In this document: piece by piece, positions 55,108 through 61,800 of the stretch
How positions within the stretch are numbered: the stretch's first letter is position 1
How the letters are laid out: the number at the start of each line of letters is the position of its first letter
NCBI GenBank assembly: GCA_017518105.1
Contig: JAFWWC010000020.1
Span: 2,056 to 66,055, forward strand
DNA: 64,000 nt
From: Selenomonadaceae bacterium
GTDB taxonomy: Bacteria; Bacillota; Negativicutes; Selenomonadales; Selenomonadaceae
Reading direction: 5' to 3'
Notes under the pieces: generated by a model
The model's input: the letters and a program-made list of their open reading frames with translations, nothing else
What the model was told of the DNA's origin: nothing
Database searches by the model: none
Program-made: the position numbers and the translations under genes

Positions 55108-55542
55108 ATGAGAACTTCAACCTTATTGCTTTACGTCTTGTTCATATCAATTGTTGCCTGCAGTGTGGTTGTCATCCTTTCCCCAAAAGATAGTCTTCGG
55201 TCGCTCGGAAAAGTTTCTAATCAAAAGAAATACACAATGTACCTCGGCACGAACGACAAGGACACCTTGAAGCAGGAACTGCCGACGGAGACAATACGCG
55301 AGCAAATGCACGAAATCTGCATGAGGCACGCCGACGGCTACACGGTGTCGATTATGGAAGGTTATTACCGCGACGGCGAAGGCAATCCGACTCATGAAGT
55401 TACTTTGGTTTATGTGTTCTTTGATACGCCGCTGGAGTCCGTCAAAAAGATTATGGACGAGGCACAGGTTAAATTTAATCAGTCGAGTATCCTGCTTGAG
55501 GAAAGTAAATCCAAAAGCATTTTCTACCAGAAGAAAGATTAA
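55108..55542 (+). CDS. Membrane-anchored hypothetical protein
   Basis: N-terminal TM/signal anchor LLLYVLFISIVACSVVVIL. No motif recognised with confidence. Confidence 0.5.
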   Translation: MRTSTLLLYVLFISIVACSVVVILSPKDSLRSLGKVSNQKKYTMYLGTNDKDTLKQELPTETIREQMHEICMRHADGYTVSIMEGYYRDGEGNPTHEVTLVYVFFDTPLESVKKIMDEAQVKFNQSSILLEESKSKSIFYQKKD

Positions 55543-55557
55543 CGGAGGTGATTTATC

Positions 55558-55983
55558 GTGAGCGTCAATCAAGTTTCGGTGTTCCTTGAAAACAAGCCCG
55601 GCACGCTGAACAAGCTTACTGAAGTCCTTGCCGCCAACAATGTTAATATCCGTGCGTTGAGTTTGGCGGAGACAAGTGAGTTCGGTATCGTGCGCATGTT
55701 GGTTAATGACGTGTTCGAGGCAACGACCGTCCTCAAGGAAAATCATTTCGTGGCGACCCTTACACCCGTTTTGGCTTATGCCATTGCCGACGAGGCGGGC
55801 GACCTAAACAAGCTCCTTAAGAAGTTCAGCGAGATTGAAGTTAATATCGAGTACATGTACGCCTTTGCGGGCAAGGAACGCGCTTACATGATTTTCCGCG
55901 TAAACGACACCAAAAAGGCTGAAGCCCTCCTCAAGGGCAAGGGGCTGAAGTCTTTAACACAGGAGGAAATTTCTGCCGTATGA
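55558..55983 (+). CDS. ACT domain-containing protein
   Basis: VNQVSVFLENKPGTLNKLTEVLAANNVNIRALSLAETSEFGIVRMLV, with a second ACT-like half. GTG start. Confidence 0.75.
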   Translation: MSVNQVSVFLENKPGTLNKLTEVLAANNVNIRALSLAETSEFGIVRMLVNDVFEATTVLKENHFVATLTPVLAYAIADEAGDLNKLLKKFSEIEVNIEYMYAFAGKERAYMIFRVNDTKKAEALLKGKGLKSLTQEEISAV

Positions 55984-55986
55984 TTA
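55854..55986 (+). repeat. 133-bp direct repeat, copy A (3' end of the ACT gene plus SD and ATG of the methyltransferase gene)
   Basis: Appears identical, on reading both copies, to 56869-57001 (offset 1015 bp): catgtacgcctttgcgggcaaggaacgcgcttacatg...aggaggaaatttctgccgtatgatta. Confidence 0.9.
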
Positions 55987-56856
55987 AGCTTAACAAAGTT
56001 ACTTTAGATTACTAGCCGCGCAATAAGATACTCCCGAAATTGCGTAGTAATCTGCAAGGTTTCGCTGCCCCCGAAATGAGCGGATTTGAATCGGCGTTCT
56101 TGTGCGGTCTATTGAAAGCTTATCGCCCGAAAAAAATTCTGGAGGTCGGAGTATCTGCTGGTAGCAGTACAACAATAATTTTACAAGCACTTGAAGACAT
56201 CGGCGAGCCTTACGAAATGTATTCCCTCGATGTTTTGGAAAAATGGTATCAGGATAAAACAAAATCGTCGGGATTCATGGCGACCTTTGCCAAAGAAAAT
56301 AATTTATTCCACACCCCCCCCCCAGTCAACCTTATGCGGTAAACATGAATTGTATCTAGGTAAATATCTTCCACAAATAATCGATGAAATAGGTGACGAT
56401 ATAGATTTCGTGATTCTCGATACGGTTCATTCTCTACCCGGTGAAGTTTTGGATTTTCCTGTGATGTTGCCTTATCTCAAAGACGGCGCGATTGTTGTTC
56501 TGCATGATGTAAGACACAATCAATATAGACCGAAAGTTTGGCATGGTTATGCAACAGCGGTTGTATTGAGTGCGGTGACCTCAGAAGAAAAATTCCTGAA
56601 TTTTGAACCCGAAGCTGAAAACCGTCCTTATTGCTACTCAAATATCGCAGCGTTCAGCATTAGTCAACGAACACGGGAATATATAGAAAACCTTTTTTTT
56701 AGTCTCGTAATAACATGGCATTATGTTCCCGACGAGAAGCAGTTAGGAATCTATCGCGAATTTTACAAGGAACATTACCCAAAAGAATTGGTTGATATTT
56801 TTAATGAGGCAGTCAAAATGAATCGCAACTTGCATTTAATGTTTAAACAGAAATAG
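55980..56856 (+). pseudogene. Class I SAM-dependent methyltransferase paralog 1, disrupted by an in-frame TAG and a frameshift at a C10 tract
   Basis: ATG 55980 (ATGA overlap with the ACT stop) gives MIKLNKVTLDY, then TAG at 56013 where the paralogs have Glu. The frame then reads PRNKIL...KKILEVGVSAGSSTT...NNLFHTPPP. The C10 tract (56314-56323) shifts the frame. The downstream frame QSTLCGKHELYLGKYLPQIIDEIGDDIDFVILDTVH... runs to 56856. C9 would restore it. Confidence 0.7.
56314..56323 (+). repeat. Homopolymeric C10 tract inside methyltransferase paralog 1
   Basis: Counted directly: c at positions 56314-56323. Confidence 0.95.
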
Positions 56857-56868
56857 TCTTTTATAGTT

Positions 56869-57001
56869 CATGTACGCCTTTGCGGGCAAGGAACGCGCTT
56901 ACATGATTTTCCGCGTAAACGACACCAAAAAGGCTGAAGCCCTCCTCAAGGGCAAGGGGCTGAAGTCTTTAACACAGGAGGAAATTTCTGCCGTATGATT
57001 A
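56869..57001 (+). repeat. 133-bp direct repeat, copy B
   Basis: Duplicate of 55854-55986. Supplies the SD and start codon of paralog 2. Confidence 0.9.
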
Positions 57002-57858
57002 TCATTGATAAGGTTCAGGAAAACTATGAGCCGCTGGATAAAATTTTGGCGAAGTTTAAGACTAACTTTCCTCAGCGCAAAAATTTTATCACTATGCATC
57101 GCAGGGAATCGGGCTTCATTTGCGGCTTAGTAGATATGACTCGTCCGAAAAAAATTCTGGAAGTCGGAGTGGCGTCTGGCGGCACGACGGCTATGATTCT
57201 GCAACAGCTCGAAGACCGCAACGAACCCTACGAAATGCACTCGGTCGACCTTAACAAGAGATTGCATAACGAGGACATCGGGGCGTTGGTGACTTTCGCC
57301 AAGGACAATAATTTGTTGGCTCCCAATGTCTTCATGAACGAAAAGCATAAACTCTATACAGGCAAATACCTACCGCAAGTCATAGACGAAATCGGTAGCA
57401 ATATCGATTTTGTGATTCTCGATACCGTGCACTATACGCCGGGCGAGCTGTTAGATTTCCCTGTCATGTTGCCTTACTTAAAGGAAGGTGCGCTCGTCGT
57501 CTTGCATGACGTTTCCTTAAATCAGCAGAATGACCCCTTCCACAAAAGCGACGCCCATGCAACTGTACTTCTCTTCAGTGCGGTTTACGCAAAGGAAAAG
57601 TTCTTGAACTTCAAGCCGGAGACCAAATGGGTGCCCTACAGCTATCCGAATATCGCAGCCTTCAGAGTGGATCACACGACACGCGAGGCTATCGAAAATG
57701 TTTTCTTGGCTCTCAATCTTACATGGCATTATCTGCCCAGCACCGAGGAGCTTACCATTTATCGCCAATTCTACAAGAAGCATTATCCCGCGGAGATAGT
57801 CGACCTCTTCGACGAGGCTGTTAAGATGAATCTCAACAACGTAGCTTTGAAAAAATAA
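56995..57858 (+). CDS. Class I SAM-dependent methyltransferase (Methyltransf_24/O-methyltransferase-like), intact paralog 2
   Basis: 287 aa. KKILEVGVASGGTTAMIL (SAM motif I), DFVILDTVH and ALVVLHDV. No homopolymer tract at the position where paralogs 1 and 3 carry poly-C. Confidence 0.8.
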   Translation: MIIIDKVQENYEPLDKILAKFKTNFPQRKNFITMHRRESGFICGLVDMTRPKKILEVGVASGGTTAMILQQLEDRNEPYEMHSVDLNKRLHNEDIGALVTFAKDNNLLAPNVFMNEKHKLYTGKYLPQVIDEIGSNIDFVILDTVHYTPGELLDFPVMLPYLKEGALVVLHDVSLNQQNDPFHKSDAHATVLLFSAVYAKEKFLNFKPETKWVPYSYPNIAAFRVDHTTREAIENVFLALNLTWHYLPSTEELTIYRQFYKKHYPAEIVDLFDEAVKMNLNNVALKK

Positions 57859-57893
57859 TCACACTACAGGCAATTAACAAAGGAGAAGAGTGC

Positions 57894-58761
57894 ATGATTA
57901 AAGTTAATGAAATTCCCAACAGTTATGAGCCGCGCAACAAAATTCTTTCGAAATTAGAAGCCTATTTTAAAGGCGCAAAAGGATCTGTTCTGATGACAAA
58001 TTCGCAATCGGCTTTTTTGTGCGGTTTACTTGAAACTTATCGCCCCAAAAAGATTCTAGAAATCGGTGTGGCAGCAGGTGGTTCAACGGCAATAATCTTG
58101 CAACCCCTCGAAGACATTGCTAGCCCCTACGAAATGCATTCCGTCGATATATGTGAAAAACATTGGGAACATAAAGAAAAGAATATTGGTTTCTTGGCTG
58201 AGATAGCTAAGGAGAATAATTTATTCACCCCCCCAGTCAACCTTATGCGGTAAACATGAATTTCACCTCGGAAAATGTATACCGCAAGTCATCGACGAAA
58301 TCGGCGACAACATTGATTTTGTTATTCTCGATACCGCTCATTTCCTTCCTGGTGAGATTTTAGATGTTCCCGTAATTTTGCCTTACCTCAATGATGGTGC
58401 GATTGTTATCTTGCATGACGTAATCTTGAATCAGCTCGACTTTAATTGGAGAGAGGCTTTTGCTACCGGTGCCTTGTTAAGCGTGGTAACATCTAAAGAA
58501 AAATTTCTAAACTCTGACGATACCAATAAAACTCTTCCCTTCTGCTATCCGAATATCGGCGCATTTAAAGTGGATCGCACTACACGTGAGAATATTGAAG
58601 ATGTTTTCTTGGCTCTCATGCTCAATTGGCATTATATGCCCAACAACGCGATGCTTGAAACGTATCGCACATTCTACAAAAGATATTACCCTGCGCACTT
58701 GGTAGATATATTTAACGAGGCTATCAGACTGAATCGCAATTACATGGCTAAAAAGAAATAA
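57894..58761 (+). pseudogene. Class I SAM-dependent methyltransferase paralog 3, frameshifted at a C7 tract (candidate phase-variable gene, currently OFF)
   Basis: MIKVNEIPNSYEPRNKIL...KKILEIGVAAGGSTAIIL...NNLFTPP, then the C7 tract (58228-58234). The downstream frame QSTLCGKHEFHLGKCIPQVIDEIGDNIDFVILDTAH...LPYLNDGAIVILHDV runs to 58761. C6 or C9 restores one 288-289-aa ORF. Confidence 0.75.
58228..58234 (+). repeat. Homopolymeric C7 tract inside methyltransferase paralog 3
   Basis: Counted directly: c at positions 58228-58234. Confidence 0.95.
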
Positions 58762-58780: not shown

Positions 58781-58815
58781 AGCCGAGGGCGGCAAATGCT
58801 CTCGGCTTATTTTAT
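58781..58815 (+). terminator. Rho-independent terminator after the methyltransferase cluster
   Basis: AGCCGAG-n13-CTCGGCT-TATTTTAT. Confidence 0.6.
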
Positions 58816-58828
58816 CGGAGGTGACGCT

Positions 58829-61800
58829 TTGGATAGATACAGGCTTACAATCGACGAGAAAAATTTCTTCAGTCTCTTTGACGAGGCGAACTTAAATTTC
58901 ACTGCTTGCCATTTGCAGGAAATCATCATCACGCCCGCGGCAAACTTTTGGCAGATAAAACTACTAACGGATAAGAATTTCGACAAGCAAACCTTCCGCC
59001 GTGCCGAGGAGTTCCTGCGCAATAGATACGGCGTCGAGGTTCAAATTGATAACGAAATCTCCGCCTCGGACGAAGTGATTATTCCCGAAAAAAAATCTGT
59101 GCGGCACTCGTCAAACGGCAAATCGAACGGGACGAGCAAAAAATTTTCCGAGACCATAACAAACATCAGCGACATTAACGAACAGAGCGGGCAGGTTACA
59201 ATTATCGGCGAGGTTGGCGCGGACGATATTAACGGCGTTAAGCTCCGCGAATTCAAGAACGGGACGACTTGCGTTTCATTCAGCGTGACGGATAAGACTG
59301 ACGGCATCGCGTGCAAGAAATTTTTCAAGAAGGATAAGCAAGCCGACGCTCAGCCCTTCGCGGACAGTATCAAAGCGGGTAGTCTCTTAAAGATTGCCGC
59401 CGCCGCCAAGTATGACGAATACGCCAAAGAGACCGTCCTTTTAATCAATGCGCTTGAGACTGTGGAAACCGTCGCCCGCATGGACAATGCCGAAGTCAAA
59501 CGCGTTGAACTGCACGTGCATACGACAATGAGCGCGATGGACGCCGTTATACCCGTCGAGAAGTTGATTAAGACCGCCGCCGCTTGGAATTGGTCAGCGG
59601 TGGCGATAACCGACCACGGAGTTATTCAAGCTTTCCCGAACGCCGCAATCACCGCCGAAAAGCTCGCTAAGCAGGGCAAGCCGATTAAAATTATCTACGG
59701 CATGGAGGGCTACCTCGTCGGCGACGACCCTAAGCAAAAGTTCGCCAATCACGTCATCATTCTAGCGAAGAACAAACGCGGGCTTGAAAACCTCTACAAG
59801 CTCATTTCAATCAGCCAGATTAAGTTCATGCATTACCGTCCGCGAATTCCAAAAAGTTTGCTCAGCGACATGCGCGAGGGTTTGATAATCGGTTCGGCGT
59901 GCGAGGCGGGCGAATTGATTCGGGCAATCACGGCGGGCAAGGACGACACCGAGCTTGAGGTAATCGCCAAATTTTATGATTATCTGGAAATACAGCCCAT
60001 TCATAACAACGACTTCCTTATCCGCAGCGACGACTTCCCGACGATTACCGACGACGAGGACTTGCGCAATATCAATCGCAAAGTCGCCGAGCTAGCTAAG
60101 CGATTGGGCAAGCCGCTTGTCGCCACGACTGATGCCCATTTCCTCAACAAAGAAGATTCGATTTGCCGAGCCGTCCTCATGCACAGCAAAGGATACGCCG
60201 ACGCCGATAAGCAACCGCCGCTGTACTTGCGCACGACGGAGGAAATGTTCGCGGAGTTCGATTATCTGGACGAGGCGACAGCTTACGAGGCAATCATCAC
60301 CAACCCGAACAAAATCGCCGAGTCCGTCGAAGTCTTGAAGCCTATACCCGACGGCTTGTATTCTCCGCAAGTGCCCGGCGCGGAAGAGGAGATACGCCAG
60401 ACTTCCTACGCTAGAGCTAGGAGACTTTACGGGGAAAACTTGCCGGCGTTGGTTGAGGCTCGACTTGAACAGGAGCTTAAGCCGATAATCGCGCACGGGT
60501 TCGCGGGGCTGTATATGATTGCTCAACGGCTCGTCAAGAAGTCAAACGACGACGGCTACCTTGTCGGCTCGCGTGGCTCTGTTGGTTCGTCGTTCGTGGC
60601 GACCTTGACGGGGATAACTGAAGTCAATCCTTTGCCGCCGCATTATCGTTGCCCGAAGTGTCAGTACAGCAAATTTTTCACGGCGGGCGAAGTCGGTTGC
60701 GGCTACGATTTGGAAAGCGCAACTTGCCCCGTTTGCGGCTATCCTCTGATTAAAGACGGGCATGACATTCCGTTTGCGGTGTTCCTCGGCTTCGACGGCG
60801 ATAAGGTGCCCGACATTGATTTAAACTTCAGCGGCGAATATCAATCGACGGCGCACAAGTACACGGAGGTTTTATTTGGCAAGCACAATGTCTATCGTGC
60901 GGGGACAATCTCGACAGTCGCGGAGAAAACTTCCTTTGGTCTGGTTAAAAGATACTTCGACGACCGCGGGCAGAAGAAGCACGGCTCATTCATTGCCAAG
61001 ATTGCGGCAGGCTGTCAGGGCGTCAAGCGCACGACTGGTCAGCACCCCGCTGGGATTATGGTTGTGCCGCGCGATATGGATATTCATTACTTTACGCCGA
61101 TTCAATACCCCGCCGACAACAAGGACGCCTCGACCACGACGACGCACTTTGATTATCACTCGATAAGCTCGCGGCTCGTCAAACTCGATATTCTCGGACA
61201 CGTCGACCCAACGATGATTCGTATGCTAGAAAACCTCACGCACCGCGACCCGAAGACCATTCCCCTTGACGATAAGCCGACGCTAAGCCTGTTCAACTCG
61301 ACCGACGCCTTGGGAGTATCGGCTGGGCAGCTCGGCACGAAGTCCGGGACATATGGCTTGCCGGAGTTCCGCACGAGTTTTACGCGGCAAATGATTGACG
61401 ACACGCACCCCGATTGCTTTAGCGACCTGGTGAGGATTTCGGGCTTTTCGCACGGGACGGACGTTTGGTTAGGCAATGCACAGGATTTGATTAGGCAGGG
61501 AACTTGCACGCTGAAGAACGCAATCTCCGCCCGCGATGATATTATGATGTACCTGATTCATCACGGCGTTGACGCGCTCAAGTCCTTCAAGACTATGGAG
61601 AGCGTCCGCAAGGGCAAGGGCATTAAGCCCGACGACCTTAACGACCTAAAGGCGCACGACGTGCCCGACTGGTACATTGACTCTTGCCAAAAGATTAAGT
61701 ATCTCTTCCCGCGAGCCCACGCAACCGCCTATGTCATGATGGCTTATCGGATTGCCTACTGCAAGGTTCATTACCCGTTGGCTTACTACGCGGCTTACTT

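Follow-up and report, generated by a model that had tools for sequence, protein, structure and literature searches.

Homopolymer contingency loci are textbook knowledge for the host-adapted pathogens Campylobacter, Helicobacter, Neisseria and Haemophilus. A close counterpart of the locus reported here is cj1426 of C. jejuni, a methyltransferase gene made phase-variable by a poly-G tract, which accounts for the 6-O-methyl-heptose of the capsule and switches at about 2-3e-2 (PMC8437040). In the PhasomeIt analysis, tract variability between homologs was taken as indicative of phase variation (PMC6321876). Outside this group, the 7C tract of glpK in M. tuberculosis undergoes reversible +1/-1 frameshifts, and came to light because its length varies in population-genomic data; homopolymeric-tract variants are known from the M. 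tuberculosis complex in general (bioRxiv 10.1101/717272; PMC10334774). The object of this work is a stretch of 64,000 nt of contig JAFWWC010000020.1 (GCA_017518105.1) from a Selenomonadaceae bacterium, hereafter the window, to which all coordinates refer. Three tandem paralogs of the Methyltransf_24 family, called P1, P2 and P3, lie in it on the (+) strand between an ACT-domain gene and the gene for PolC, and two of them, P1 and P3, are frameshifted at a poly-C tract. The array is plausibly a contingency, or phase-variable, locus, and the probability that this is so may be set at about 0.68.

The likeness to the Campylobacter genes (cj1426, and also Cj0170, UbiE_3 and the C. fetus set) is manifold. 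In both cases an intragenic G/C homopolymer shifts the frame of an S-adenosylmethionine (SAM) methyltransferase, the tracts measure 7-10 nt (one relative reaches 13), several switchable paralogs or neighbours provide combinatorial ON/OFF states, and tract length varies among homologs. Modification of a surface glycan, shown for cj1426, may be a further common trait (PMC8437040, PMC6321876). The parallel with cj1426 is drawn by mechanism alone, and no homology with P1-P3 is claimed. Differences are evident as well. The host is a rumen commensal of the Negativicutes with about 50% GC, and not a low-GC pathogen of the Campylobacterota; P1-P3 are found outside any capsule, lipooligosaccharide or flagellar glycosylation island, in a slot between ACT and PolC; and two tracts in 64 kb give no evidence of a genome-wide phasome. 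The comparison with glpK holds for the coding C7 tract, which has its equivalent in P3. Yet, glpK is a single metabolic gene involved in drug tolerance, P1-P3 are stacked, diversifying paralogs, and both organism and selective setting differ. No description of phase variation mediated by simple sequence repeats (SSR) in Selenomonas, rumen bacteria, Negativicutes or Lachnospiraceae was found in the literature searched, in agreement with the earlier note on this DNA, in which no precedent was known for the gene family or its context. Mechanism and logic are thus already known, as in the poly-G contingency genes of Campylobacter. New are the taxon (rumen commensals of the Negativicutes, and Lachnospiraceae as well), the gene family, the ACT-PolC slot with its duplicated ACT tail, and the signs of a parallel loss of P1.

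The tracts of P1 (55980..56856) and P3 (57894..58761) share one alignment position, straight after ...ENNLF. The former is a C10 (56314..56323), the latter a C7 (58228..58234), both of 3n+1 length and thus OFF, and in either gene the part after the tract is read in the +1 frame with respect to the part before it. Removal of one C, leaving C9 in P1 and C6 in P3, fuses the two halves into proteins of 291 and 288 aa collinear with P2; in P3, a C9 would be ON as well. The effect is not hypothetical for P1, since a natural C9 allele (P0135) encodes the intact 291-aa protein. P2 (56995..57858, 287 aa) is intact and carries no tract, reading NNLLAPNVF at the corresponding site. What the earlier note had read from the sequence was confirmed throughout. 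The last seven C of the tract and the following 28 nt (CCCCCCCAGTCAACCTTATGCGGTAAACATGAATT) are identical in P1 and P3, which elsewhere exhibit about 75-80% identity. The identity of this block, some 35 nt long, had been noted before and read as a sign that the tract region is maintained; a conserved peptide (QSTLCGKHE) combined with gene conversion accounts for it better. Two G/C tracts of at least 7 nt, a length known to slip and expected in SSR phase-variable genes, lie within open reading frames (ORFs), and no other G/C run of the whole window exceeds 5 nt. The window is strongly depleted in G/C homopolymers, 21 runs of at least 5 nt being observed against 47 expected. According to a first-order Markov model, 9.9 runs of at least 6 nt are expected, and the two observed are precisely these tracts. 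Under the same model a C10 is expected 0.02 times in the window (P = 0.019). In contrast, runs of at least 7 nt are expected 2.06 times and observed twice, and a lone C7 would be unremarkable.

Comparing tract lengths among related assemblies, as the earlier note had proposed, proved informative. All lengths were taken from the assembled consensus sequences of public assemblies. P1 alleles at least 99.5% identical to each other carry a C9 in L003, L004, L100-L109 and L112-L117, a C8 in L110 and a C10 in the window. The intact C9 form, of 291 aa and with GAG at codon 12 (P0135, P0138; NCBI MBQ4494781.1, MBQ6759156.1), occurs on 16 contigs from many samples, among which two NCBI metagenome-assembled genomes (MAGs). 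The C8 allele, found on one contig, has no other change. The C10 allele, found in the window and on an identical contig, is accompanied by a TAG at codon 12, and a C10 is also present in a diverged P1-like allele known from one contig (L111). The same is seen in a different species: an alignment of 1,374 nt between L015, in which a C9 lies in a continuous ORF, and L096, which has a C8, shows 99.35% identity and no gap other than the tract. Further OFF alleles at this site are L027 (C8) and L098 (C7). P3 carries a C7 on 13 contigs retrieved from ENA, NCBI (GCA_017510185.1) and Logan and derived from several samples, and its ortholog in L013, 85.5% identical at the DNA level and likewise adjoining PolC, carries a C10 instead. 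All three length classes modulo 3 (C9; C7 and C10; C8) thus occur at one site, as slipped-strand mutation predicts and a programmed frameshift does not. The tract is kept at the same codon in P1, P3, L013, L015, L027, L098 and L111, lineages separated by dS values above 0.9-2. Pattern scans of JGI metagenomes and GTDB added merely a few alleles. An exact look-up of the C8 fragment in the protein collection gave no match, and a search of 5.8 billion clusters with the reconstructed ON form of P3 retrieved no full-length match exceeding 59% identity.

The sequence downstream of the tracts is under constraint in the ON frame. Over the 175 codons that follow the tract, P3 and L013 differ with a ratio of nonsynonymous to synonymous substitutions (dN/dS) of 0.15 (dS 0.92); in the other two frames the ratio is 1.0-1.25, and 9-15 stop codons are found. 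In other pairs, including the OFF alleles L027, L096 and L098, in which the tract is the only disruption, ON-frame dN/dS is 0.12-0.35 both before and after the tract, against about 1 in the control frames. These values indicate that genes of the P1 and P3 type are not long-dead pseudogenes. P1 of the window is a special case. Besides the frameshift, it carries a nonsense codon (TAG, 56013..56015) at codon 12, where 19 of 19 other alleles at least 99.5% identical have GAG, and P1 would therefore be broken here even at C9. The TAG had been spotted in the earlier note, and translation was there imagined to resume at an in-frame TTG (56040). The TAG stands, the TTG start finds no support: it was rejected in view of GAG in the other strains and of the N-terminus that would be lost, which is conserved and structured (M1, I2, P13 and K16 are invariant or nearly so). 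Six P1 alleles were compared, with the intact one as reference. The window allele differs by G34T (GAG to TAG) and one additional C, L003 by T243G (TAT to TAG, codon 81), L004 by a 1-nt deletion in a T4 run, L110 by one C fewer, and a missense change, A30T, is shared. Hence, two of the three substitutions are nonsense (P = 0.008, given that 5.2% of the possible substitutions create a stop), and none of the changes is synonymous. This pattern is read here as suggesting that loss of P1 function has been selected for in some populations.

Slip-prone tracts are not a peculiarity of the window. In a survey of 80 species-representative loci (485 kb), family genes make up 15% of the bases, and host 8 of the 14 G/C runs of at least 8 nt (binomial p = 3.5e-4). 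Family tracts map to six positions, given here in P2 coordinates, are made of either C or G, and are ON in five cases and OFF in three. Residues 25-28 correspond to a C9 in L029 (ON). At residues 61-64 (GxGxG motif), L046 has a G9 (ON) and L070 a G8 (OFF). A G13 is found at about residue 74 in L034 (ON), a G8 at residues 102-112 in L091 (OFF), and a G10 at residues 122-125 in L036, from the cultured Lachnospiraceae bacterium A4 (ON). The remaining position, 108-111, is that of the poly-C tract of the window, known from ON and OFF alleles. That slip tracts were gained independently at several sites, and as poly-C as well as poly-G, argues for selection on mutability as such in this family. Lengths which differ between near-identical alleles, purifying selection on the ON frame and family tracts found in either state all speak for the proposal, first made in the earlier note, that the tracts are phase-variable.

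All three paralogs match PF13578 (Methyltransf_24) above its gathering threshold of 26.3 bits, with scores of 43-55 bits and E values between 1e-11 and 2e-14, and the GxGxG SAM motif is present. An AlphaFold model of P2, built on an alignment of 60 sequences, has a predicted local distance difference test (pLDDT) of 93.8 and a predicted template modelling (pTM) score of 0.92. In this model the codons of the tract, P2 108-111, belong to the loop that connects helix 97-104 with helix 111-117, and gain or loss of a proline should accordingly be tolerated. In a Foldseek search of PDB, the top matches were the cation-dependent class I O-methyltransferases Rv0187, TrmR, CCoAOMT and COMT (probability 1.0, target-normalised TM 0.57-0.66). 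These enzymes share the Rossmann fold with the paralogs and differ in sequence, identity being 13-19%, and in lacking a conserved C-terminal region of ~100 aa (residues about 190-287). The Foldseek search provided a fold class and no substrate, and a sequence search of PDB yielded marginal matches only. A distant resemblance to CmcI and the rhamnosyl O-methyltransferases was noticed, with scores well under the cut-offs (PF04989 RMNT_CmcI, 17 bits against 23.2; NF045824 rhamnosyl O-methyltransferase, 18 against 400). Conserved acidic and His residues (LDT-H at 142-146, HD at 171-172) resemble in their arrangement the LDSDH motif of CmcI-type enzymes. By fold, the paralogs are cation-dependent class I SAM O-methyltransferases. 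In Lachnospiraceae, the homologs of L036 (G10) and L046 (G9) reside among GT1/GT4, GT2, GT11, DegT and radical-SAM genes, and the L036 protein has an additional C-terminal part of ~110 aa with an IYGCGxxG motif, common to neighbouring genes. From the company of these distant relatives and from the fold, the substrate may be a sugar of a surface glycan, an assignment to be taken as tentative, with chances slightly short of even.

The site hosting the array is conserved. The named homologs all come from Selenomonadaceae MAGs of ruminant guts, and in more than 12 species of this family the ACT-PolC slot is occupied by a Methyltransf_24 relative. Across those species identity is 90-99% for paaK and 82-99% for ACT, and just 45-65%, in most of them, for the methyltransferase. 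The number of copies varies too. A single copy, a P2 ortholog 92% identical, is found in the closest species (L014), two in L015 and three in the window. The left boundary is the ACT gene (55558..55983, +), identified as such by the Pfam ACT match of an identical gene in L001; its TGA overlaps the ATG of P1 (ATGA). A direct repeat of 137 nt, with one mismatch between the copies, includes the 3' end of ACT, the ribosome-binding site and the start of the methyltransferase. Copy 1 (55850..55986, +) stands at the end of ACT itself. Copy 2 (56865..57001, +) is a duplicated ACT tail in front of P2, and contains a remnant ORF of 42 aa (56870-56998), the stop of which overlaps the ATG of P2. The same architecture is found in L015 (1759-1884), which suggests that duplication of the ACT tail may be a recurrent way of stacking cassettes. 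At the right end, the last methyltransferase of the array is followed by AAATAAATTTTTATAAT, by a strong terminator-like hairpin with a T-run (58781..58807, +; 11-bp stem, 7 GC pairs) and by the ribosome-binding site of PolC. This junction is kept in L100, L014 and L013, and comes after whichever methyltransferase is last. Common flanking sequences thus define a slot with fixed left and right boundaries, in which cassettes are stacked. Slot, duplicated ACT tail and strain differences in copy number had all gone unmentioned in the earlier note. P2 was found in every strain examined. Strains with an intact P1 (L100-L104, L112-L114), as well as the C8 strain L110, have no P3, and P2 adjoins there the terminator and PolC. 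Between strains, P1 is 99.5-99.8% identical, P2 about 97% and PolC about 93%, which points to a recent horizontal spread of the P1 cassette.

In the model proposed, the poly-C run of P1 and P3 contributes between one and three prolines to a loop at the protein surface, and slipped-strand mispairing during replication would make it one C longer or shorter. Lengths of the 3n type (C6, C9) would yield the full enzyme. A 3n+1 tract would bring translation to a TAA after ...PPVNLMR, a 3n+2 tract to a stop some 10-40 aberrant codons later, and the OFF product would be a non-functional N-terminal fragment of about 120-155 aa, devoid of most of the Rossmann fold. P2 would guarantee a constant activity to which those of P1 and P3 are optionally added, resulting in a combinatorial methylation state. 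The state caught in the window would be P1 OFF, P2 ON and P3 OFF, with P1 also locked off by its nonsense mutation. On a longer time scale, alleles may be swapped and stacked by recombination in the ACT-PolC slot, and each cassette added upstream would bring along a copy of the ACT tail, preserving the overlapping stop/start junction. Switching would be reversible within a lineage, and the selective agent could be either phage or the host.

Several observations weigh against a contingency locus. Consensus sequences do not reach within-sample heterogeneity. The C8 allele of P1 is known from a single assembly (L110), and the C10 is supported by the contig identical to the window and by a fragment (P0136) on an NCBI contig which may derive from the same reads. 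None of the public assemblies has P3 at an ON length (13 contigs with C7; L013 with C10), the exact C6 and C9 products of P3 are missing among 15 billion proteins, and a C7 is near the lower limit of the tract lengths that switch efficiently in Campylobacter. The neighbours in Selenomonadaceae are housekeeping genes (iorAB-paaK-ACT, PolC) and include no glycan genes, so that the substrate has to be argued from distant relatives and fold. P1 has been irreversibly knocked out in three strains, and for this gene the signal is in part one of loss, not of switching. Further inactivating mutations across strains, which the earlier note had regarded, together with a fixed out-of-frame length, as the mark of plain pseudogenes, were indeed encountered for P1 (L003, L004); P3 is otherwise undamaged. 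One could thus hold that P1 and P3 are decaying duplicates, and that the tracts are merely where the break occurred. The nonsense codon which P1 of the window has besides its frameshift, the independent P1 knockouts, the failure to see P3 ON and the presence of P2 only in the closest species would all fit, and for P1 of this one strain such a description is, in a narrow sense, already true. As a general explanation it is unlikely. Intact P1 is the commonest state, ON-frame dN/dS remains at 0.12-0.35 over dS values from 0.7 to more than 2 while control-frame omega is about 1, and the P1 variants have the makings of selected loss, not of neutral decay. The breaks of P3, L013, L027, L096, L098, L110 and L111 fall exactly in the tract, and the first five of these alleles have no other stops or frameshifts. 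A P3 long dead as a pseudogene is ruled out by dN/dS. The tract could alternatively be an element of programmed recoding, with 3n+1 as the native length and the full enzyme made by +1 ribosomal frameshifting on CCC-C or by transcriptional slippage. It is well established that tRNA-Pro can slip on CCC-C. Moreover, the 3n+1 length is shared by five OFF alleles (P1 C10, P3 C7, L013 C10, L098 C7, L111 C10), purifying selection acts on P3 even though all assemblies have it as 3n+1, and an RNA hairpin (GCGGTA…TACCGC, 58246-58287; z = -2.8) is located 12 nt 3' of the P3 tract. The corresponding stretch of P1 forms no such structure (z = +0.2), and hence the hairpin is not conserved between the two genes. 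The same site also hosts 3n+2 alleles (L027, L096 and L110, all C8) and in-frame C9 alleles (the majority of P1, L015), in-frame and out-of-frame lengths are mixed in family tracts elsewhere, and, unlike the shift site of prfB, the tract is not adjoined by a stop codon or by a Shine-Dalgarno-like stimulator, the stop of the OFF frame being 6 codons downstream. The locus does not behave as a programmed +1 frameshift of the prfB type, given the C9 and C8 alleles and the unconserved hairpin. Recoding is therefore quite improbable, and keeps a small probability because alleles of the P3 type have been seen only as 3n+1.

Errors at homopolymers, which are known to be error-prone and against which the earlier note had warned, would leave the genes truly in frame, and the thin support of the C8 and C10 alleles mentioned above is in keeping with this. 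Most data go in the opposite direction. A contig 100% identical to the window (ENA ERZ27256873, k141_480153) bears a MEGAHIT-style name, and the k141_ and XIEF21 styles of scaffold names were taken to denote short-read assemblies, in which homopolymer indels are rare. The C7 is identical on its 13 contigs, the C9 recurs on at least 16, the C10 is tied to a distinct strain background (TAG codon, P3 present, PolC 93% identical), and two A9 runs in the window lie within intact ORFs. An artefact is, in view of this, very improbable. Even less credit can be given to the notion that the paralogs are phase-variable DNA methyltransferases, which would alter gene expression as a phasevarion or guard against restriction. 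The best-known phase-variable methyltransferases of the literature are Mod-type DNA methyltransferases, and weak matches to PADLOC mad2 (E = 6e-5) and to phrog_2675, annotated as DNA methyltransferase (E about 1e-4), were obtained. These matches are of about 20 bits and cover the SAM-binding Rossmann region only. The paralogs have no (D/N/S)PP(Y/F/W/H) or PC catalytic motif and no Pfam DNA-methylase match, there is no partner restriction or specificity gene nearby, and the fold fits small-molecule and cation-dependent O-methyltransferases. A role in DNA methylation, phasevarion control or defence was rejected on motif, domain and fold. Slipped-strand switching of putatively surface-modifying enzymes is the explanation preferred here for P1 and P3.

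A wider reading can be formulated, the odds of which are judged to be even. One subfamily of Methyltransf_24 may be a widespread, unrecognised contingency family of gut commensal anaerobes (Selenomonadaceae, Lachnospiraceae and others), in which tracts were acquired independently at no fewer than six positions, and for which the ACT-PolC site of Selenomonadaceae serves as a recombination slot, with alleles exchanged there, piled up along with copies of the ACT tail, and passed on from strain to strain. The excess of independent P1 knockouts would reflect a strong and fluctuating selection, acting on a surface glycan in its methylated form and exerted most plausibly by phage. If true, SSR phase variation in the style of pathogens would extend to rumen and gut commensals. 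Rumen Selenomonadaceae, and probably Lachnospiraceae of the mouse and human gut, would vary a surface methylation mark likewise. The gene family and its conserved locus could then be used to track strain-level surface variation and phage-host dynamics in metagenomes, and frameshifted family members in MAGs would be OFF alleles, not junk or assembly errors. Lachnospiraceae bacterium A4, a cultured mouse-gut isolate with an in-frame G10 (L036; KE159528.1, 3235-3244), is a possible experimental entry point.

A few alleles deserve a separate mention. L010 (ENA ERZ28653793, 766 nt) coincides with P3 exactly up to the 35-nt block shared with P1, and with P1 exactly beyond it. It corresponds to window positions 57751-58260 joined to 56340-56606, and is one A short (GGTAAACATG becomes GGTAACATG). 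L010 could be either a true P3::P1 recombinant or product of gene conversion, or an assembly chimera. In P0027 (308 aa, ENA) the tract region is internally duplicated (…ENNLFSRSALCGKYEYPLENNLFPPLPVNLSGSHEF…), and the duplication reads in part in the OFF frame of P1 and P3 (PVNL…). It looks like the trace of an old frameshift that was later compensated by another change. Some Selenomonadaceae members of the family (P0007 from L015, P0008, P0013, P0015, P0017, P0020 and P0029) are fused to ChW repeats (PF07538), and in P0007 the methyltransferase domain is followed, on its C-terminal side, by ~150 additional residues. Such repeats are usually assigned to extracellular or cell-wall proteins, and are odd companions for a SAM-dependent enzyme.

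The array is preceded by iorA/iorB-like oxidoreductase genes, a paaK-like ligase, a DUF3574 gene and the ACT gene, and is followed by PolC. On the (+) strand no terminators were found between ACT and P3, except for two weak intragenic matches, and the array is likely co-transcribed with the upstream genes. In a Rfam scan of the whole 64-kb window no family reached the gathering score. The DUF3574-like ORF between paaK and ACT (55108-55542) is missing from several species at the same locus, and has been called as 125, 134, 138 or 144 aa in closely related strains. At the opposite end, the long ORF of PolC has its first ATG (58796) inside the region of the terminator hairpin that comes after P3, and a ribosome-binding site, GGAGGTGA, stands before an in-frame TTG at 58829. 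From this arrangement, PolC would more likely start at the TTG 58829 than at the ATG 58796.

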